Source: a virus (lineage: Duplodnaviria; Heunggongvirae; Uroviricota; Caudoviricetes). Taken from it: a stretch of DNA of 64,000 nucleotides. Where the stretch lies: IMG/VR virus record IMGVR_UViG_3300025778_000009. The stretch is one strand, 5' to 3'. How positions within the stretch are numbered: the stretch's first letter is position 1; each line of letters begins with the position of its first letter. A program made the translations under genes and the position numbers. The notes beneath the pieces were generated by a model. That model was not told the origin of the DNA. It was given only the letters and a program-made list of their open reading frames with translations, and did not search any database. Shown here in pieces: positions 34,600 to 42,865 of this stretch.

Positions 34600-35982
34600 A
34601 TGAACGGTTTAAATGAAGAATTAGTTGCAAAGTGGAAGCCAGTGCTTGAGCACTCAGATCTTCCAAGAATTGCTGACGCCCACAAGCGTTCAGTAATTGC
34701 TACACTTCTAGAAAATACTGAAAAGGAAATGCGTTCTGAAGCAATGGCACGTGGTTCTTATAACGGTATTACATCTCTTAACGAAACTGGTATCAATGCT
34801 GTTGGTACTGGCGGTTATGGTTCAGCTGGCGGCTCAGGCGTTGCTGGTTACGATCCAATCCTTATCTCATTGATTCGTCGTGCAATGCCTAATCTTATTG
34901 CTTATGACGTTTGCGGTGTTCAACCAATGACTGGTCCAACTGGACTTATCTTTGCTATGCGTTCACAATATGCAAACTCAACTGCAAAAGGTTCAGAAAC
35001 ATTCTATGACGAAGTTAACACTGGTATGTCATCTGGCTTCAATGGCACTGGCGTATTTGGTCAAGGTACTGGTTCAGGCATTGGTGCTAACAACGTTGGT
35101 TCAACACCTGACAACACTGGCGGTGTTGGTTCATACAACTATCAAGCTGGTGCTCCTACATCAACAGCAGAAGCTTTTGGTACAGGTACTACATTCCCAG
35201 AAATGGCCTTCTCAATTGATAAGGTTTCTGTAACTGCAGTATCACGTGCTCTAAAGGCAGAATACACTATTGAATTGGCACAAGATCTAAAGGCTATCCA
35301 TGGATTGGATGCTGAGACTGAATTGTCAAACATTCTTCAGTCTGAAATTCTTGCTGAAATCAATCGTGAAGTTATTCGTGCTATTAACATTACTGCACGT
35401 CAAGGTGCTACAGACGGTACTACACAAGCTGGTATCTTCGATCTTGATACTGATTCAAACGGCCGCTGGTCAGTTGAAAAGTTCAAGGGTCTTATGTTCC
35501 AACTTGAAAGAGAAGCTAACAAGATCTCAAAAGACACACGTCGTGGTAAGGGTAACCTAGTTATCTGCTCTTCAGATGTTGCATCTGCTCTTCAGATGGC
35601 TGGCGTACTTGACTATACACCTGCTCTTGCTTCTAACAACCTACAAGTTGATGATACTGGCAATACATTCGCTGGTGTTCTAAACGGACGCTTCAGAGTA
35701 TATGTTGATCCATATACAACTGGTAACTATATGACTGTTGGCTATAAGGGTGCTAATGCATTCGATGCAGGTATCTTCTATTGCCCATACGTTCCACTAC
35801 AAATGGTTCGTGCAGTTGGTCAAGCAGACTTCCAACCAAAGATTGGATTTAAGACTCGTTATGGAATGGTAGCAAATCCATTTGCTCGTTCACAACAAGG
35901 TTCACCAAATCTTTCAGACGGTACACTATCTGCTTCTACTAACAGCTACTATCGTAGAACAATCATCCAAAACATCTTCTAA
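34600..35982 (+). CDS. gp23: major capsid protein
   Basis: The N-terminus LVAKWKPVLEHSDLPRIADAHKRSVIATLLENTEKEM is gp23-like. The 460-aa length is typical of cyanophage-type gp23. It follows gp22, and strong RBS and promoter-like sequence lie upstream. Confidence 0.85.
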   Translation: MNGLNEELVAKWKPVLEHSDLPRIADAHKRSVIATLLENTEKEMRSEAMARGSYNGITSLNETGINAVGTGGYGSAGGSGVAGYDPILISLIRRAMPNLIAYDVCGVQPMTGPTGLIFAMRSQYANSTAKGSETFYDEVNTGMSSGFNGTGVFGQGTGSGIGANNVGSTPDNTGGVGSYNYQAGAPTSTAEAFGTGTTFPEMAFSIDKVSVTAVSRALKAEYTIELAQDLKAIHGLDAETELSNILQSEILAEINREVIRAINITARQGATDGTTQAGIFDLDTDSNGRWSVEKFKGLMFQLEREANKISKDTRRGKGNLVICSSDVASALQMAGVLDYTPALASNNLQVDDTGNTFAGVLNGRFRVYVDPYTTGNYMTVGYKGANAFDAGIFYCPYVPLQMVRAVGQADFQPKIGFKTRYGMVANPFARSQQGSPNLSDGTLSASTNSYYRRTIIQNIF

Positions 35983-36048: not shown

Positions 36049-36300
36049 TTATTTTTTATAAAGCCAAGTATTAAATATATCTGCCATTTGACATACTTGT
36101 TCACTTGTCATAATAACGCCGTTCACCTCATTGCCTGGTGATGCTACAAGTTCATTAATATGCTTACACCATTCAATAGACTTATCTAAAGCCCATTGAC
36201 GATTCCAAATACGATCTGCTTTCTCGCGACGAGCAATACTTTCTGGTGTTTCTTTTGGAACTTCAAATTCTTCATTCATTCTGTTACTACCTTTCTCCAT
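36049..36300 (-). CDS. hypothetical protein
   Basis: 83-aa ORF that overlaps the upstream minus-strand gene. Confidence 0.4.
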   Translation of the reverse strand: MEKGSNRMNEEFEVPKETPESIARREKADRIWNRQWALDKSIEWCKHINELVASPGNEVNGVIMTSEQVCQMADIFNTWLYKK

Positions 36301-36587
36301 TGACCATCTTTACGTTTTAACCAAAGATCGCCATCATCACCTACTGCCATTGTTACTGCTTTATTAGGATCTGGTTGATGCATTCTCACTAATGATATTT
36401 TATATTGATCAGGATTATCAAATTGTGTCTTCTTCATTTCTGTAGTATCAACTTTAGATGCACCATTAAGAGTTATACTAAAAGCAGTATCTAAAGGTAC
36501 ACCATCTGCTGTTGCTGCTCTTGCTCCTTCAGCAACCAAAGCAAGAGGAGCTACAGGTAGGAATGCAAAGAAACTACGACGATTCAT
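36276..36587 (-). CDS. small secreted protein with a twin-arginine (Tat)-type signal peptide
   Basis: MNRRSFFAFLPVAPLALVAEGARAATA contains an RRxFF motif, a hydrophobic h-region and an AxA cleavage site. Local GC is higher than the surroundings. Confidence 0.5.
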   Translation of the reverse strand: MNRRSFFAFLPVAPLALVAEGARAATADGVPLDTAFSITLNGASKVDTTEMKKTQFDNPDQYKISLVRMHQPDPNKAVTMAVGDDGDLWLKRKDGQWRKVVTE

Positions 36588-37780
36588 TGTTTCACCTCCG
36601 GTAATGGTGCCTTAGGAGCTAATCCAATCAATGCATCAATCATTTGTGGAGTGACTACAATAGGCAATCCATGCTTATCCAAACCTGAACCAAGACCTTC
36701 TTGTACCTTAAGACCAGCAACTGCCTGAAGAATAGGAAGTGCAGAAGCAAGCTTAGTAGCAATATAACGATCGTTAACAGCTTTCTGAACTGATTGATCA
36801 AACTCAAACGTATCTGCCCATCCAATAAAGTCTAGAGTAATACCAACAGAAGCAAAGTATTCTTTTACGCTCTTTTGAATACTTTCCATCATAGGTACCA
36901 TATCTTCATTAGCCTGATCAAATGTACGTTTGCCGATTTCAGCACAAACAAGTGTCTGAACCTTCTTACGGCCTACATCATCCATAACATTAGCCAATGA
37001 ACGCCCATAATAAACAGATGTAAAGATTACTTGTGGATCATTACGATTACCTTGTTGTGGAACTACACCAAAGCGGTAAAGAAACTTAGCCGCATCAACT
37101 TCTGATACAGATGCGCCAATAGAAACACCTGCTGTAATATTCAAACCTTCCTTTGATTGACAAGGAAATGATTGATCTGAAGAAGCAGTTCCACGATTAG
37201 CAGACTTTACCCATTCACGAGAGTAGGGGGTACGATCAACAATAATCAAACGACCTGTAGGTACATAAAAGTCCCAATTCAAAAAGCCGCCTGAATTACT
37301 CAACTTAGCATGAGGAACAATAAAACGCTTTGCAGCAATCTTATTATCACTCAAATATGATTCAGAATCAAACTTGGCTTGAGTATCTTTGTTTGCACCA
37401 ACATCTGGAATCCAGAATGCTGATTCATTAGGAAGAATTGTATATGCTTCTGTCTTGTCAACAGTATCAGCATATGCAAATGCCTGTTGAGGATGTGCAA
37501 TTATCACAAGCAATAACAGCGCAGTAGATGCAGCCAGAAATTCTTGAATTTTATTCTTCCAAATAGCAAACAGAGTAACAAAAAGCACTAGCGTTGAAAT
37601 AAAATACACCGTGTTATTGATTGCAAAAACAAAACTCGTTGTAAGGTAAGTTGTTGTACTGTTATCAAATTGACTGCCTGCAACAGATCCTGTAATCAAA
37701 GTAGCCAAAGGATTAACTATACTAATTATTGTCATATAGACAAAAAAAGTAATAGCAGTTTTAATAATATTGCCGATCAT
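36584..37780 (-). CDS. integral membrane protein with three N-terminal TM helices and a large extracytoplasmic or soluble domain
   Basis: Hydrophobic segments are IIKTAITFFVYMTIISIV, FVFAINNTVYFISTLVLFVTLFAIW and AASTALLLLVIIAHP, followed by a 280-aa polar domain. Confidence 0.5.
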   Translation of the reverse strand: MIGNIIKTAITFFVYMTIISIVNPLATLITGSVAGSQFDNSTTTYLTTSFVFAINNTVYFISTLVLFVTLFAIWKNKIQEFLAASTALLLLVIIAHPQQAFAYADTVDKTEAYTILPNESAFWIPDVGANKDTQAKFDSESYLSDNKIAAKRFIVPHAKLSNSGGFLNWDFYVPTGRLIIVDRTPYSREWVKSANRGTASSDQSFPCQSKEGLNITAGVSIGASVSEVDAAKFLYRFGVVPQQGNRNDPQVIFTSVYYGRSLANVMDDVGRKKVQTLVCAEIGKRTFDQANEDMVPMMESIQKSVKEYFASVGITLDFIGWADTFEFDQSVQKAVNDRYIATKLASALPILQAVAGLKVQEGLGSGLDKHGLPIVVTPQMIDALIGLAPKAPLPEVKQ

Positions 37781-37803
37781 TATAAATGCTCCATTATAAA
37801 GCG

Positions 37804-38589
37804 TTACAGTTTAATTAAATCTTCTAGTTGATATTTCTGTGACATATAGCTAGAAACATTGTCTAAGACTGTTCTTTCTAAATCACCTTCACGTCTAGGA
37901 TATTCATTAACAGTAAAGTCTACATTATTAACTTTTTTAAAAGCTCTAATAATAGCTCTTACTGTATAACCAATACCAGTACCTAAATTTTCCAAACCAT
38001 TAGCAGGTTTGTCTATTGCTTTAATTAAAGCTTCACATATTTCGTTTACATGAACATAATCTCTAATACAAGTACCATCAGGTGTATTATAATCTGTACC
38101 GTAAAGATTAAATTCACCGGTATTTGCAGCTTTAATTAAATTATAAAGAAGACCGTCCGGGTTAGTAGGAGGAAAACCATCAGTTCCTATTACGTTATAA
38201 AATCTAAAAATAGTATAATTAAGATCTTTTTTATTGCAAACTTCTTTTACCACATCTTCACATGCACGCTTTGAAAATGCATATGGATTATTAGGGCTAG
38301 ATGCAGTCCCTGAAGAAGCAAAAATAAAATTATTATAAACAATCTTATTAAGTATATTAATTGTTCCACCAAGATTGTTATTATAATACTTAGAAGGTTC
38401 TTTAACCGATTCGTTAACCCTTACTAGTGCAGCAAGATGAATTACTGTATCTACAGAATAAAAAGTGAGTTTATCATTAATATCACCTTCATACTCTATT
38501 ACTTCATACAAGTCATTATAATGTGAAAGCATCTTTACTAAATGCTGACCAATATAACCCTTACTGCCTGTAATAATAATTTTTTTCAT
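37804..38589 (-). CDS. NAD(P)-dependent sugar epimerase/reductase (extended SDR family, GalE/RmlD-like)
   Basis: The N-terminal Rossmann motif is KIIITGSKGYIGQHL (TGxxGxxG). The catalytic YxxxK is NPYAFSKRACE. Confidence 0.7.
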   Translation of the reverse strand: MKKIIITGSKGYIGQHLVKMLSHYNDLYEVIEYEGDINDKLTFYSVDTVIHLAALVRVNESVKEPSKYYNNNLGGTINILNKIVYNNFIFASSGTASSPNNPYAFSKRACEDVVKEVCNKKDLNYTIFRFYNVIGTDGFPPTNPDGLLYNLIKAANTGEFNLYGTDYNTPDGTCIRDYVHVNEICEALIKAIDKPANGLENLGTGIGYTVRAIIRAFKKVNNVDFTVNEYPRREGDLERTVLDNVSSYMSQKYQLEDLIKL

Positions 38590-38593
38590 TTAG

Positions 38594-38788
38594 TTAACGG
38601 ATAACTTTCAAGTGATCAAAAACATAACCTGATGCTTTCAAGAATGTTTCAAATTGGCTTAACACAACATGAAGATTAGCTTCTGTAGCATCAAATGATA
38701 TTTCTACTGTCTGGTCAGGATGATCATCCATTCCGCTGTTGACCATATCCATACGGAATGTGTATGTTACACTAAAATCGTCATTCAT
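38594..38788 (-). CDS. hypothetical protein
   Basis: 64-aa ORF in the minus-strand operon. Confidence 0.35.
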   Translation of the reverse strand: MNDDFSVTYTFRMDMVNSGMDDHPDQTVEISFDATEANLHVVLSQFETFLKASGYVFDHLKVIR

Positions 38789-39198
38789 AATATAAACTCC
38801 AAATGATCTTCTACTACCTTAAAACGCACTGTTTGAGGATTGCCATTAATCTTAGTATAGTCTCTACCCCCATCAATAGCAACTTTATCGGCCGCACGAT
38901 AATCATGACGGTACCGACTATATACGACTTTCTCACCTAAAACAATACCGGTATACTCTACTTCTGTAGCTGAGATGCCATTAGCAATCATTAGATCACC
39001 ATCCATATCAAAATACAAACCAAAATAGTTAGAACCTTCTGGATGAGCTTTTTCTGTGTAGAAAATAGCACATGGAAAGTTGCCCCAGTCTCCACTCTTA
39101 AGTCTCAAACACGAATCAAAGATATAAGTAGCATTATATTTCTCTTCTATTTTTGCTATAGAATCTGGTCTAAGAAATGATGAAGTGTCTATCCACAT
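38785..39198 (-). CDS. hypothetical protein
   Basis: 137-aa ORF overlapping its neighbours by 4 nt. Confidence 0.4.
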   Translation of the reverse strand: MWIDTSSFLRPDSIAKIEEKYNATYIFDSCLRLKSGDWGNFPCAIFYTEKAHPEGSNYFGLYFDMDGDLMIANGISATEVEYTGIVLGEKVVYSRYRHDYRAADKVAIDGGRDYTKINGNPQTVRFKVVEDHLEFIL

Positions 39199-39504
39199 TT
39201 ATTTTTTCCTATAGTACATTGTATAAATTTTTTCTAACCCAACTTTGTTCGGATGCTTATGAATCCATTGTCCTGTATATGGGCTAAACTCTTTTTGGAA
39301 GTACAAATCCATTATATCGTTTTCTGTAGAAATGGCAATATTTATTTTAGATGCAAGTTCATCAAACTCAGCATCAGTCATAATAGAATCTGAATGTACT
39401 TCATAAGCATAAGCTGCTACTGATAATTTAATTCTATTTCGTCTTTCTATTTCAACCGGTGACCCCCAATTAGACTTAACTTCCATAAAGTCTTCTATAC
39501 TCAA
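39199..39504 (-). CDS. hypothetical protein
   Basis: 101-aa ORF. Confidence 0.4.
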   Translation of the reverse strand: MSIEDFMEVKSNWGSPVEIERRNRIKLSVAAYAYEVHSDSIMTDAEFDELASKINIAISTENDIMDLYFQKEFSPYTGQWIHKHPNKVGLEKIYTMYYRKK

Positions 39505-39860
39505 GACATACCTACTATATGCTTACAGTTACGACGGAACATAAAAGCCTGACAAGTACAAGACTTATAATTCTCTCCTACAGTTACAATATAAGTATCA
39601 CCTTTAGAACCTGTAACTGAAAAAGTGCGCTCTTTTACTGCTTCTGTTTTAAAAGAAGTAGCAGCACCATCCATTTCTATAATATCTTCTTTAGGTATGA
39701 TACGAAACTTAAACTTAGTATTTTCGCTTGTAGTAAGAGCAATAGCATCATACTCTACCCATTTAGGAGTAGCAACAAGCTCTCCTTCATAGGTATAGTA
39801 ATTTTGTCCCATTGTACGGTGAGAGTTTTTAACTGTAACTTTCATTGCTTTGACACACAA
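39501..39860 (-). CDS. SWIM-type zinc-finger protein
   Basis: The C-terminal SCTCQAFMFRRNCKHIVGM matches the CxCx(n)CxH SWIM signature. Confidence 0.55.
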   Translation of the reverse strand: MCVKAMKVTVKNSHRTMGQNYYTYEGELVATPKWVEYDAIALTTSENTKFKFRIIPKEDIIEMDGAATSFKTEAVKERTFSVTGSKGDTYIVTVGENYKSCTCQAFMFRRNCKHIVGMS

Positions 39861-40027
39861 GTAATATAAGGATGTAAGGAAGCAAACTCTTTTGCGATCA
39901 TTTTAGATGATACTTCACAATGAGCTTTATCTTTTACTGGTGTCTCAATAGTTACTTTAGATTTCTCTACACCAGTAAAAGATAAAGATACAATCATAAC
40001 TAGAACATAAGACATATTAACGATCAA
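39842..40027 (-). CDS. small hypothetical protein
   Basis: 61-aa ORF with a hydrophobic N-terminus. Confidence 0.3.
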   Translation of the reverse strand: MIVNMSYVLVMIVSLSFTGVEKSKVTIETPVKDKAHCEVSSKMIAKEFASLHPYITCVSKQ

Positions 40028-40202
40028 TTGCTAAATCATGATAGTAGTCAGCTGCATCTCCAAGATACTCTTGAAGGCGGTTATCAATTTCTTCTGAATT
40101 ACTACAAACTATATCATAGGCTTCAGACCAATCCATTAATGGATTTTTATCCATAAGTTCCTCGACCATCTTGTCAAGAATTTGAACCCATAGTTCTTTC
40201 AT
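40017..40202 (-). CDS. small acidic hypothetical protein
   Basis: 61-aa ORF. Confidence 0.3.
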   Translation of the reverse strand: MKELWVQILDKMVEELMDKNPLMDWSEAYDIVCSNSEEIDNRLQEYLGDAADYYHDLAIDR

Positions 40203-40205
40203 ATA

Positions 40206-40535
40206 TTACATGCTCCAGTAAGTTTCTTTCGAAGGATCACAAGCAAGAGGAGTAGAAGCAAGAATCGTAACATCCTTGCCGGTCATAAGGCTCTTAACAA
40301 CCTTAGTACGAGTTTCTTCCGTATGCTGAGCCTTTGCTTTCTTAAGATGCAGCTTAGCATTACCAATCTTCAAACCCAACTTATGGCAGAGTTCAGAAAG
40401 AATAACTTCGTCGGTATCACCCTTACGAAGCGAACCCATGATAAAATTACGAACTTCATTCCGTTTATGACGCATTTGAGTATCTCCATTTCTCATCTTA
40501 TAATTAATCATAGCGGTTTTAGGAAAATAATGCAA
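40206..40535 (-). CDS. hypothetical basic protein
   Basis: 109-aa Lys/Arg-rich ORF. Confidence 0.4.
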   Translation of the reverse strand: MHYFPKTAMINYKMRNGDTQMRHKRNEVRNFIMGSLRKGDTDEVILSELCHKLGLKIGNAKLHLKKAKAQHTEETRTKVVKSLMTGKDVTILASTPLACDPSKETYWSM

Positions 40536-40545
40536 CTGTTATTTT

Positions 40546-40917
40546 TTACCCTACCTTAACATAGCAAACTTCTTCGATATCAATAAAATCTTCCTTCACT
40601 TCATATTCATAGTTATCAGTACCGTCACCTAAAAACATTTTTTCACTATATCTCAATTCTTCCATAAACTTTTTATCAATTTTTTCTCCTACAAACTCAA
40701 CAGATACGTAACCAGAATCTTCAAACCGATACCAACCTTTTTTAGTAACTACTTCATTAATAGTATCAACATCACCACCAAAGAATTCTTCTGCCGACAT
40801 ACTACCTAATTCGAATTTATCCATAAATTCTTTTGCTAATTTGTTCATTTTCATCTCTCCATTTATCATATTATTATAATCGTATAAATCTGATATAAAA
40901 TCTACTGTTTTTTTCAT
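40546..40917 (-). CDS. hypothetical acidic protein, first gene of the minus-strand operon
   Basis: 123-aa ORF whose start abuts the inverted-repeat region. Confidence 0.4.
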   Translation of the reverse strand: MKKTVDFISDLYDYNNMINGEMKMNKLAKEFMDKFELGSMSAEEFFGGDVDTINEVVTKKGWYRFEDSGYVSVEFVGEKIDKKFMEELRYSEKMFLGDGTDNYEYEVKEDFIDIEEVCYVKVG

Positions 40918-40925
40918 AAAAACGC

Positions 40926-41012
40926 CATTGAAATCATTGAGTTTTTTTAGATCTAGCTAACTTATTGAAATCATTATACTTTTTATATCAAAAAAACTCA
41001 ATGATTTCAATG
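40926..41012. promoter_or_regulatory. 23-bp perfect inverted repeat with a 41-bp spacer that contains a third partial copy, in the divergent intergenic region
   Basis: The arm cattgaaatcattgagttttttt at 40926..40948 has its exact reverse complement aaaaaaactcaatgatttcaatg at 40990..41012. The spacer contains attgaaatcatt at 40964..40975 and an agatct palindrome. Confidence 0.6.
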
Positions 41013-41083
41013 TCGTTTTTTTATAGATTTTATTATAAAAACATGCTATATTTAATTATAAGATAAAATAAAGGAGATAAAAA

Positions 41084-41284
41084 ATGACAAAACGTATTTT
41101 CGCCACTTTTGACTTCGAGCACGAAACAGTTCTCGGCGACCTTTTAGACCTTTTATTCTGCTATCAAGGTAAAATTGAATCTTTTTTTCCTCGTGAAGAT
41201 GTATGGGTTTTGACTCTATCTTTTTCAGCAGAAAAAGAATTAAAAAGCTTTATAGAAGATTTAGGTCGTGATCCGATTTACTAG
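41084..41284 (+). CDS. small hypothetical protein (early-region type)
   Basis: 66-aa ORF with AAAGGAGAT upstream. Confidence 0.4.
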   Translation: MTKRIFATFDFEHETVLGDLLDLLFCYQGKIESFFPREDVWVLTLSFSAEKELKSFIEDLGRDPIY

Positions 41285-41339
41285 TTGCTATTATTTTCAA
41301 AATACCGTATATTAGTATTATGAGAAATGGAGAAGTGAA

Positions 41340-41555
41340 ATGAATGTCAATGAAGCAATATCATTAGCTAATCAGCTTGAACTTTTAATTACTAATTCTC
41401 TCACATACAATATGTCTCGAGAACAGCTCATACAAGGGATAGGATTTGTATCTAAGGAGCTACGTGAGTATGCGGATAAGCTAGATTCTGATATGTATAA
41501 CGAATTAGGTCATGCATACGAGAAGTATGATGATGCAATGGTTGTTGGAGGTTAA
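41340..41555 (+). CDS. small hypothetical protein
   Basis: 71-aa ORF with a GGAGAAG RBS. Confidence 0.4.
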   Translation: MNVNEAISLANQLELLITNSLTYNMSREQLIQGIGFVSKELREYADKLDSDMYNELGHAYEKYDDAMVVGG

Positions 41556-41961
41556 TATGATCCCTGTTACTTTTCCTGCTGGTCGTTATCTCATTGGTGA
41601 TCTTTGCTACCGTGATGAATATATGTGGGATGCTATGCTTAATACACCTATGGGTAAAAAAGGCAAAGTAGAGAATTCCTATGAAGGTACTGTTCATGAT
41701 TTTTGTATTTTAAGGACTAAGTGGGGTGATGGTGGTTATGATGATCAATATGGTAACGAATATTTTGTAGATTCTGGTACAATTGGAATTATGAGCTGGA
41801 ATCAAGATAAAAAAGATAGCGGTACTGGTCGCACTTTTAATTTTGCCGGTCCGTTTCAAGTATATGAAGAAAACGGTAAGTTGGTTTTTGGTAGTATCAT
41901 CATTAATACTGATCCAGTATATGAAGAAAAAGAAGAATATGAACTAGAGGAGACATTCTAA
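41512..41961 (+). CDS. hypothetical protein
   Basis: 149-aa ORF. The true start is probably the internal Met MIPVTFPAG, which follows GGAGG. Confidence 0.45.
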   Translation: MHTRSMMMQWLLEVNMIPVTFPAGRYLIGDLCYRDEYMWDAMLNTPMGKKGKVENSYEGTVHDFCILRTKWGDGGYDDQYGNEYFVDSGTIGIMSWNQDKKDSGTGRTFNFAGPFQVYEENGKLVFGSIIINTDPVYEEKEEYELEETF

Positions 41962-41963
41962 TA

Positions 41964-42143
41964 TGGATAAGCTATTAATTTTTTTAGGTGCTTTGGTTAT
42001 CATTATCATCGGACCGTTTCTTTCAATCTGGGCATTGGATACTCTTTTCCCAGTGCTTAATATCCCCTATACACTTGAAACATGGTTTGCTGCTGCAATT
42101 TTGTCAGCTGGGGTATATACTAGACCTAATAAGAAAGGTTGAT
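41964..42143 (+). CDS. small membrane protein (59 aa)
   Basis: MDKLLIFLGALVIIIIGPFLSIWALDTLFPVLNIPYTLETWFAAAILSAGVYTRPNKKG: two hydrophobic segments. It falls below the ORF-track length cutoff. Confidence 0.3.
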
Positions 42144-42324
42144 TATGTTTAACTTACAGGCTTGCTATTCTATCAATGATATACTATTCTCAGTATCATT
42201 GTTTACAATGATTTTAACAGTCATTGTTACATTTACGTATTTGATGGTTACGTTGATTAAAGATGCAGTGTTTGAAGTACAAGACATGAAATCTAAGAAA
42301 GATAGAGCCATAAATACTCAATGA
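42139..42324 (+). CDS. small membrane protein
   Basis: 61-aa hydrophobic ORF. Confidence 0.3.
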   Translation: MIMFNLQACYSINDILFSVSLFTMILTVIVTFTYLMVTLIKDAVFEVQDMKSKKDRAINTQ

Positions 42325-42334
42325 GGAGTAGTAT

Positions 42335-42865
42335 ATGGCAATTATTACAGATCAACCACAAAATATTAATTTTCTTTCACCGTTAGGGTTCAGGTTTAAA
42401 TTAGCCAGAACTCCTAATGTGAATTTTTTTGTTACTGATGTTAAACTGCCTTCTATAAGTTTAGGATTTGTAGAAGTTCCTTCACCGTTTAAAATTATTG
42501 AAATAGCTGGTAATAAATTAGATTACGGTGATTTTGAATTAACATTTAGATTAGATGAAGATTTAGAATCTTATTTTGAGATTTATAACTGGTTAACTGC
42601 TATCGGATTTCCAGAAGACTTTAAGCAATTTGCTAAATTAAAAAACTCTTCTAATGCATATGGCTCGCTTCAGACTCAATATTCAGACGGAACATTAACT
42701 ATATTAACAAATGAAATGGTTCCTAATTATGAAGTTAATTTTGTCAATATGTATCCTACAACAATTAGCGATATAAATTTTACAGTTACTGATACAGATG
42801 TAAATTATATTACGGCAACCGTTACATTTAAATACCAGATTTATCGCATTAATAAAGCCCAATAA
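42335..42865 (+). CDS. tail tube protein paralog (gp19-like fold; tube initiator/terminator candidate)
   Basis: LPSISLGFVEVPSPFKIIEIAGNKLDYGDFELTFRLDEDLESYFEIYNW aligns with the gp19 segment of this window, LPASSLGTIEVPYFGRKLKIAGDRKFDPWTVTIINDEDFLVRNAMETW. Confidence 0.55.
   Translation: MAIITDQPQNINFLSPLGFRFKLARTPNVNFFVTDVKLPSISLGFVEVPSPFKIIEIAGNKLDYGDFELTFRLDEDLESYFEIYNWLTAIGFPEDFKQFAKLKNSSNAYGSLQTQYSDGTLTILTNEMVPNYEVNFVNMYPTTISDINFTVTDTDVNYITATVTFKYQIYRINKAQ

Follow-up and report, generated by a model that had tools for sequence, protein, structure and literature searches.

Phased copies of an asymmetric motif, probably IHF-type sites, between two divergent promoters of a T4-like phage

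The window, by which we mean the whole 64-kb stretch of DNA analyzed here, carries three copies of an asymmetric motif of approximately 27 bp between two divergently oriented promoters. We propose that these copies are IHF-type architectural sites that would shape both promoters, and we assign this reading a probability of roughly 0.6. The broader statement, that the copies are phased upstream protein-binding sites belonging to a clade-wide motif, is very probably correct. The two outer copies form the inverted repeat for which the region was originally singled out, and this inverted repeat is not itself the functional unit.

The window belongs to a T4-like myovirus with approximately 33% G+C. 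Its best gp23 match was that of Stenotrophomonas phage DLP_6 (66%), followed by those of Methylophilales and Pelagibacter phages, and megablast of positions 40000-42500 against cultured phages gave no match. A minus-strand gene block, which includes Band7-like, epimerase and ligase-domain-like ORFs, lies between the gp23 gene and the repeat. Beyond the repeat, the plus strand encodes small ORFs, a gp3-like tail protein, UvsY, a UvsW-type helicase, the late sigma factor gp55, gp47 and gp46. The repeat occupies a divergent control region, as was first suggested: it lies in the gap between the variable minus-strand block and the small plus-strand genes, and transcription diverges from it. The features discussed below are as follows.

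34600-35982: gene for the major capsid protein gp23.
36276-40848, minus strand: variable gene block.
40507-40535, minus strand: sigma70-like promoter cassette.
40546-40848, minus strand: first leftward gene, encoding a 100-aa acidic protein (start revised from 40917).
40876-40904, minus strand: P_L, inferred leftward promoter, with TAGATT (40904-40899), a 17-bp spacer and GATTAT (40881-40876).
40918-40948, plus strand: site A, the left arm, with the core ATTGAAATCATTGAG at 40927-40941 and a T-run at 40942-40948; PWM score 37.9 bits; nearest site to the leftward promoter.
40949-40989, no strand: 41-bp spacer between the arms, holding AGATCT and site B.
40958-40984, plus strand: site B, the middle copy, TAACTT-ATTGAAATCATTATA-CTTTTT, with its core at 40964-40978; PWM score 27.4 bits.
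40990-41020, minus strand: site C, the right arm, with its core at 40997-41011 (minus strand) and its T-run, a plus-strand A-run, at 40990-40996; PWM score 33.4 bits; nearest site to the rightward promoter.
41024-41052, plus strand: P_R, inferred rightward promoter, with TAGATT (41024-41029), a 17-bp spacer and TATATT (41047-41052).
41084-41284, plus strand: first rightward gene, encoding a 66-aa protein (98% identity in the related contig L001).
41285-41313, plus strand: sigma70-like promoter cassette.
54677-54731, plus strand: element with a degenerate second motif copy, ATTGAAATACATGAG (54677-54691), 11 nt upstream of TTGATT-17-TATTAT (cassette at 54703-54731).

Both genes that flank the repeat read away from it. 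A 123-aa ORF starting at 40917 was rejected in favor of the start at 40848, which is preceded by a conserved GGAGAG-N6-ATG arrangement. The ATG at 40917 touches the left arm and is unlikely to be used as a start, TAG being found at the homologous position in the relative L060. After this revision, the non-coding gap extends from 40849 to 41083. The leftward 100-aa protein had no Pfam or PHROG matches, the small proteins flanking the array had no family matches, and a flanking 102-aa protein had no relatives in the metagenome scan.

The left arm of the repeat (CATTGAAATCATTGAGTTTTTTT, 40926-40948) and its exact complement (40990-41012) are 41 bp apart. This is the perfect 23-bp pair of the original prediction, and the pairing stretches to 31 nt on each side (40918-40948 with 40990-41020), with 30 of 31 positions complementary. 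The third half-site claimed for the spacer is likewise present. Its exact 12-mer, ATTGAAATCATT, is found at 40964-40975 and points the same way as the left arm. Taken as a 21-nt unit (40964-40984), the half-site shares 81% of its positions with the left arm and can pair at 81% of positions with the right arm, which lies beyond a 6-nt gap. The AGATCT palindrome is located at 40949-40954, within the spacer as described.

The repeat is the longest inverted repeat with a spacing of up to 300 bp in the whole window. When the window was searched for further copies, as had been suggested, the exact 12-mer was found at three places, all of them at this repeat. With one mismatch allowed there were nine matches, compared with 2.0 expected, and none of 100 shuffles reached nine. 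Further, a scan with a matrix built from the motif family scored sites A, B and C at 27.4-37.9 bits (individual values above), whereas the maximum in 20 shuffles of the window was 15 bits. Thus, a chance origin of the repeat is excluded, in agreement with what had been supposed from its length.

The unit has the consensus TAAC(C/T)N-ATTGAAATCATTGAG-TTTTT (~27 bp). An exact search for the 20-mer ATTGAAATCATTGAGTTTTT found it in 34 IMG/VR stretches. In related T4-like contigs, the units form arrays of two to four, often within ~100 bp, and neighboring units were arranged directly in 25 pairs and inverted in six. By tblastn of the window ORFs we identified at least eight syntenic relatives (L001, L011, L013, L016, L018, L028, L034 and L060), in which gp23 is 66-89% identical to that of the window. 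In all eight, the array was located at the same junction, in the order gp23, variable block, array, gp3, uvsY, uvsW. The small genes adjoining the array differ among the relatives, and no neighboring gene is common to all arrays.

In the closest relative (L001/L059), the three sites and their layout (+,+,-) were kept, site B reading TAACCT-ATTGAAATCATTGGA-TTTTT in L001. The spacers of L001/L059 have diverged and AGATCT was lost; outside site B, the spacer of the window is not conserved in L001. The left arm of L001 has changed from ATTG to CTTG, with no compensating change in the right arm. In L060, the leftward gene was kept (78% identity) but the array consists of three direct copies, and the homologue of this gene is found across the array on the opposite strand. 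Direct arrays were observed in L004, L008, L011, L013, L016, L018, L022, L028 and L060, and stem-forming arrangements are confined to the window, L001, L003 and L064. A check for loss of the repeat from relatives that keep the flanking gene thus gave a divided answer, in that L060 lost the inverted structure and retained the motif. Conservation thus applies to the sites and not to their inverted geometry.

Genes have also moved around the array. Homologues of the genes at 39199 and 39501 are found on the opposite side of the array in L028, and a 2.6-kb indel distinguishes the window from L001 at ~36.6-39.2 kb, inside the variable block and ~1.7 kb from the repeat. In L064, a locus of a 109-kb contig, a two-site inverted pair lies between two TAGATT promoters near rnh, gp59 and gp32. 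As this is a different genomic location, the module of site and promoter is portable.

Every array lies upstream of a sigma70-like cassette, and there is usually one cassette reading outwards on each side. The cassette comprises TTGCAT, TTGCTA, TTGATT or TAGATT, 17 bp, TAnnnT, a Shine-Dalgarno sequence (a AATAATATGAGAAATGGAGA-type leader) and ATG; P_L, P_R and the cassettes at 40507-40535, 41285-41313 and 54703-54731 are those of the window. P_L and P_R are promoters inferred from sequence. P_L aligns with TTGATT-17-GATTAT in L060, and L059 is identical to the window there; P_R is followed by AAGGAGA and then by the ATG at 41084. A consensus scan also returned TTGAGT-17-TATAAT on the minus strand (41001-40973), but the -10 hexamer of this candidate is not kept in L001, and it was therefore discarded.

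The center of site A (40933) is 29 bp upstream of the first base of the P_L -35 hexamer, and that of site C (41005) is 19 bp upstream of the first base of the P_R -35 hexamer. When the nearest site was considered in 20 promoter-site pairs from 12 loci, the distance from the site center to the first base of -35 was 19-22 bp in ten pairs, 29-31 bp in eight, and 41 and 52 bp in the other two. The distances were alike whether the site pointed towards or away from the promoter. Their periodicity was strongest at 10.5 bp (R = 0.865, Rayleigh p ~3e-7, the related cassettes not being fully independent). The centers of all units were positioned 19-136 bp upstream of the -35 hexamers and upstream of the inferred starts. 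The spacing indicates helical phasing that is independent of orientation, as is expected of a protein that bends DNA just upstream of RNA polymerase.

The regions upstream of P_L and P_R align as an inverted duplication: both contain AAAAAAACTCAATGATTTCAATG(G/T)CGTTTTT, followed by a 10-nt indel and then by TAGATTTTAT. The inverted repeat is near-perfect because a module comprising the site, G(G/T)CGTTTTT and TAGATTTTAT was duplicated head to head. Site B is 35-37 bp from each of its neighbors.

We compared the motif with the canonical IHF site, which has WATCAA near its center, TTR 4 bp to the 3' side of WATCAA, and two steps (usually AA) 9 bp apart at the points of proline intercalation; the 5' half of some sites also carries a 4-6 bp A-tract (PMC1874591). 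All four elements are found in the reverse complement of the motif, AAAAAA-CTC-AA-TGAT-TTCAA-TNGG-TTA, and when the columns were matched to those of the lambda H' site (AAAAAAGCATTGCTTATCAATTTGTTG, NC_001416), they fell in the same register. When the IHF template was slid along both strands of the motif logo, the best register scored 0.825 and the next 0.627 (z = 4.3); the logo was derived from 33 copies that were not used for retrieval and that were found by PWM, so that it is biased towards the motif. The most conserved blocks of the logo, namely TAA, TTGAAA, CATTG and the T-run, are the IHF elements as judged from this alignment.

The core TTTCAA agrees with WATCAA at five of six positions, and TCAA was invariant in the 33 copies; position 2 of WATCAA was T in 82% and A in 15% of them. 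The TTR element was represented in the family logo by T (73%), T (97%) and A (85%). The AA steps, at template positions 10-11 (97% each) and 19-20 (100%), are both present in all three sites of the window. The T-run at motif positions +16 to +20 corresponds to the A-tract in the H' register and is 7 T long in sites A and C and 5 T long (+16 to +20) in site B. Site B, in which the core ends in ATA rather than GAG, retains the TAA (TTR) element and is thus complete with respect to the four elements. In sites A and C, the core, the A-tract and the two AA steps are present, whereas CGT stands at the TTR position (ACG for TAA), the flank of site A being AAAAACGCC where TAACCN is usual.

The match, which is by sequence only, differs from the canonical IHF site in several respects. 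The core is TTTCAA, far more positions are fixed (unrelated genomes share 15-21 nt exactly), the two arms of the repeat in the window have no TTR, and the sites occur in abutting arrays. Further, C8, A9 and G12 of the core are strongly conserved here and not conserved in E. coli IHF sites, which may mean that the reader is more specific or has another optimum. In several relatives the units abut at a spacing of 25-28 bp, as against an IHF footprint of ~34 bp, so that full simultaneous wrapping of all such sites is impossible; the spacing of 35-37 bp in the window is compatible with full occupancy. The motif was also compared by eye with the consensus sequences of the Fur box, Pho box, sigma54, CtrA, Fis and UP-element, and these readings were dropped because the fit was poor.

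The motif is also found outside the T4-like clade. When TAACYN-ATTGAAATCATTGAG was searched in one genome per species, 24 matches were obtained. At least 22 of these were in Proteobacteria, Myxococcota, Bdellovibrionota, Desulfobacterota, Acidobacteriota or Nitrospinota, which are IHF-bearing lineages, and, despite the AT-richness of the pattern, Firmicutes, Bacteroidota and Cyanobacteria contributed none of the 24. The 21-mer is also present in Rhizobium phage 16-3, where two inverted copies lie next to the tRNA-like core and int, within the annotated functional attP. The second copy in this attP comprises the core only, without the IHF flanks, and further CAATGATT copies there might be integrase arm sites. 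In L036, an exact 21-mer is found 4 nt after a tRNA-Leu gene and is followed by a tyrosine integrase gene, and in L056 an exact 21-mer is found 1 nt after a tRNA-Ser gene. Like lambda H', copies of the motif adjoin att cores and int genes (16-3 attP and L036).

In L040, two ATCAAACCAAGTGA repeats flank the 21-mer, a Mu-type transposase gene is found ~0.9 kb away, and we read this locus as the end of a Mu-like prophage. The motif was found among short iterons beside replication helicase or primase genes in L057 and L058, and in iteron-like repeats in L002 and in Xanthomonas phage Pfeifenkraut, where the region is intergenic; in L002, L057 and L063 a single motif copy accompanies separate iterons. 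In three Paenochrobactrum species the motif is located upstream of mdh. An 86% match in the E. coli genome, inside a CDS of the dpd island, was taken as chance, and matches of 87-90% identity in Streptococcus satellite phages were dismissed because they are inside CDSs. The spread of the motif across unrelated elements cannot be explained by a regulator confined to one clade but can be explained by a ubiquitous architectural protein, and its presence in unrelated mobile elements and at chromosomal sites points to a host protein. When E. coli IhfA, IhfB and HupA were used as tblastn queries, neither the window nor the related loci gave anything below E = 1. Literature searches gave nothing relevant for the motif (both strands) or for 16-3 attP with IHF, and we found no description of such arrays, or of IHF at early promoters, in T4-like phages.

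In the mechanism that we propose, the sites would be read by host IHF or a closely similar DNA-bending protein, for which the ~27-bp unit would be a high-affinity site. At each promoter, one site would be centered 19 or 29 bp upstream of the -35 hexamer, that is, at ~-54 or ~-64 from the inferred start, and three footprints of ~35 bp could sit side by side. Immediately upstream of RNA polymerase, the bound protein would bend the DNA sharply, and always on the same helical face. Such bends may shape the upstream DNA of both promoters, which have the weak hexamer TAGATT, and set their activity, by activation or by repression, at the start of infection. The head-to-head duplication of the module, with an indel of 10 bp (one helical turn), would have supplied one copy to each promoter. 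Here, both IHF as the binder and the early timing of the promoters are what we infer.

Comparable arrangements are known. IHF sites lie upstream of the early promoters lambda pL and Mu Pe, and the arrays described here resemble them in placing putative bending sites upstream of probable sigma70 early promoters of a phage on a defined helical face. They differ in that the phage is a lytic T4-like myovirus, that each region has two to four near-identical sites, and that the sites are between divergent promoters, with the nearest center ~20 or 30 bp upstream of -35. Phage-encoded HU-family or histone-like proteins act at early promoters in SPO1 (TF1) and phi29 (p6). These systems share with the proposed one the clustering of bending-protein sites at lytic-phage early promoters, whereas neither the window nor the related loci yielded an HU/IHF homologue.

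Another likeness is to the promoter-early stem-loop (PeSL) elements, which are mobile regulatory cassettes of T4-type phages (PMC2839356, PMC4122927). As in these, a sigma70-like promoter, a Shine-Dalgarno sequence and a start codon are repeated in hyperplastic regions, and genes have been gained, lost and shuffled between relatives (L060, L028 and the 2.6-kb indel relative to L001). At 54691-54731 there is even a true stem-loop around the -35 hexamer. In contrast to the short, terminator-like stem-loop of PeSLs, however, the arrays have an asymmetric 27-bp motif upstream of the promoter, mostly as direct copies. We did not classify the element as a PeSL because the defining stem-loop is replaced by this asymmetric motif.

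A first alternative to the IHF reading is that the sites are operators for a sequence-specific regulator of both promoters that the phage itself encodes, the candidate being an 89-aa basic protein (40206-40475). The core has a partial dyad, CAWTGAWWTCAWTG (10 of 14 positions), and matches to the reverse-complement matrix reach 17-22 bits; further, strong conservation extends to core bases beyond the IHF consensus. Homologues of the 89-aa protein adjoin the arrays in L008, L028, L034 and L064, and its AlphaFold model (pLDDT 85.6) has three helices and a beta-hairpin, a fold common in DNA binders. However, the protein has 14 close homologues, without a Pfam domain, whereas the motif occurs in at least six bacterial phyla, in the 16-3 attP and in a Xanthomonas phage. 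The genes flanking the arrays vary, and no homologue of the 89-aa protein was found in the 13-kb junction locus L011. Further, the sites are upstream of -35 and not over the promoter, and spacing that depends on phase and not on orientation suits a DNA bender better than a contact repressor. We therefore consider a phage-encoded regulator unlikely. A palindromic operator for a dimeric repressor is not supported: the unit is asymmetric, the arrays are mostly direct, the sites are upstream of the hexamers, and the arrays have no neighboring gene in common. The operator that was originally envisaged for both promoters survives to the extent that protein-binding sites appear to serve both, and finds no support as a symmetric dimeric-repressor operator.

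According to a second alternative, the array and its cassettes are mainly a recombination joint or a replication-origin element, either PeSL-like or an iteron origin, and the repeat marks a site of rearrangement. The movement of genes across the array (the homologue of 40546-40848 in L060, and those of 39199 and 39501 in L028), the inverted duplication of the two promoter modules and the occurrence of the same module elsewhere in L064 are in line with this idea, as is the company of iterons that the motif keeps in other elements. PeSL cassettes were reported to mediate such shuffling in T4-type phages (PMC4122927). These observations are compatible with the IHF reading and do not exclude it. 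At the array of the window, moreover, no iterons, initiator gene or unwinding element was identified, the indel relative to L001 (~36.6-39.2 kb) is away from the repeat, and the helical phasing to -35 points to a role in transcription. Recombination or replication as the main function is thus somewhat less probable still, while a role as a joint of the PeSL kind is possible because genes were shuffled across the array between relatives.

It is very improbable that the repeat acts as a hairpin or cruciform, that is, as a bidirectional intrinsic terminator or a structured RNA. Either strand can fold into a long stem (-36.6 and -36.8 kcal/mol, z ~-8), the arms end in a T-run or an A-run, and sites B and C could pair in a 21-bp stem with a 6-nt loop, but strong folding is inevitable for any inverted repeat, the 31-nt arms have ~23% G+C with a 41-nt loop, and the repeat is probably untranscribed, since it precedes both inferred promoters and separates the 5' ends of two diverging genes. 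The terminator scan of the window gave none here, and the Rfam matches were sub-threshold and to miRNA-hairpin models, reflecting the long stem. In addition, the direct repeats of most relatives cannot pair (L060 has its three direct copies), and the ATTG to CTTG change in the left arm of L001 is uncompensated. The terminator that had been among the functions first suggested is contradicted by its AT-rich stem, its 41-nt loop, its position at 5' gene ends, the lack of a scan match and the loss of the inversion in L060.

A more speculative picture, which we regard as doubtful, extends the IHF reading to a portable super-consensus bending site that would be shared by T4-like phages, temperate att sites, Mu-like ends and iteron origins. 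Its phase-dependent, orientation-independent modules would capture host RNA polymerase for early promoters with a weak -35 and double as patches of homology for inversion and exchange. The reader of such a site might be an undescribed protein other than IHF, possibly the clade-specific 89-aa protein.

IHF bending sites are a familiar kind of control element, which would here occur in an unfamiliar phage group. If the IHF reading is true, a whole uncultured clade of T4-like phages would rely on a nucleoid protein of the host at a conserved junction carrying early promoters. The T4 paradigm differs, in that phage factors such as MotA/AsiA and ADP-ribosylation do that work. Host prediction would then be narrowed to IHF-bearing Gram-negative lineages, the motif would be a simple sequence marker of early regulatory regions in metagenomic T4-like genomes, and indirect readout could be studied on an IHF-type site of unusually high information content. 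Should the binder prove to be a protein other than IHF, the motif would still be the mark of an upstream element that is conserved and phased. Elsewhere in the window, the degenerate copy at 54677 has strong single sites in L014 and L026 as its orthologues.

Four features of the window and one annotated locus outside the T4-like clade are noted alongside the arrays of the motif, the asymmetric unit of about 27 bp read as a candidate IHF-type bending site:
40507-40535, minus strand, repeated promoter and leader cassette
41285-41313, plus strand, repeated promoter and leader cassette
54677-54731, degenerate motif copy ATTGAAATACATGAG, 11 nt upstream of TTGATT-17-TATTAT
40206-40475, minus strand, gene for a basic protein of 89 aa (MRHKRNEV...ETYWSM)
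L061 1330-1590 (DQ500118 30539-30798), attP of Rhizobium phage 16-3, annotated as functional

The two cassettes, which stand ahead of consecutive small genes on both strands, each consist of TTGCAT or TTGCTA, 17 bp, TATGAT or TATATT, ATGAGAAATGGAGA and ATG. Neither cassette has motif copies. At 54677-54731, the -35 hexamer is enclosed by a 13-bp hairpin (54691-54725; arms GGTTCTTTTCAGT and ACTGAAAAGAACC), and the locus looks like a true promoter and stem-loop of the PeSL (promoter-early stem-loop) type. Strong single motif sites in two of the compared contigs, L014 and L026, are orthologous to it in position, which follows a gene resembling GTP cyclohydrolase. The small genes downstream of this promoter locus include an HNH endonuclease ORF of 117 aa (54977-55330).

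In the 16-3 attP, an inverted motif pair, CCATTGAAATCATTGAGCTTTTT ... CTCAATGATTTCAG, lies directly past the tRNA-like core. Further, at least three more CAATGATT-like copies are spread over both arms; these may serve IHF, the integrase (as arm sites) or both proteins. In L040, from a Hyphomicrobiales MAG, the exact 21-mer of the motif is flanked by two copies of ATCAAACCAAGTGA (about 1900-2030). Its neighbours are a Mu-type transposase and a gene of the Cro/CI-like kind, an arrangement similar to that of a DNA-bender site between the end-binding sites of a transposase.

The gene for the 89-aa protein adjoins motif arrays in L008, L028, L034 and L064. Only 14 homologues were found, all uncharacterized, and the C-terminal ILASTP.xC.P..E.YWSM is invariant. 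No Pfam domain was found in this protein, for which an AlphaFold model (pLDDT 85.6) predicts three helices and a beta-hairpin.

When the window was compared with its closest relative, L001 (gp23 89% identical), a 2.6-kb indel was observed: L001 lacks 36584-39198, the part of the minus-strand block with a Band7-like gene, a gene for an NAD-dependent epimerase and two small ORFs. This indel is located within the variable block, away from the motif inverted repeat. The 101-aa protein encoded at 39199-39504 (minus strand) resembles NAD-dependent DNA ligases in their N-terminal Ia domain alone (PF22745, E = 6e-11) and contains no catalytic ligase domain. Further, a perfect 19-nt inverted repeat, CTTTATCTTTTACTGGTGT / ACACCAGTAAAAGATAAAG (39925-39943 / 39969-39987; spacer 25 nt), lies within the small minus-strand ORF region at 39842-40027.
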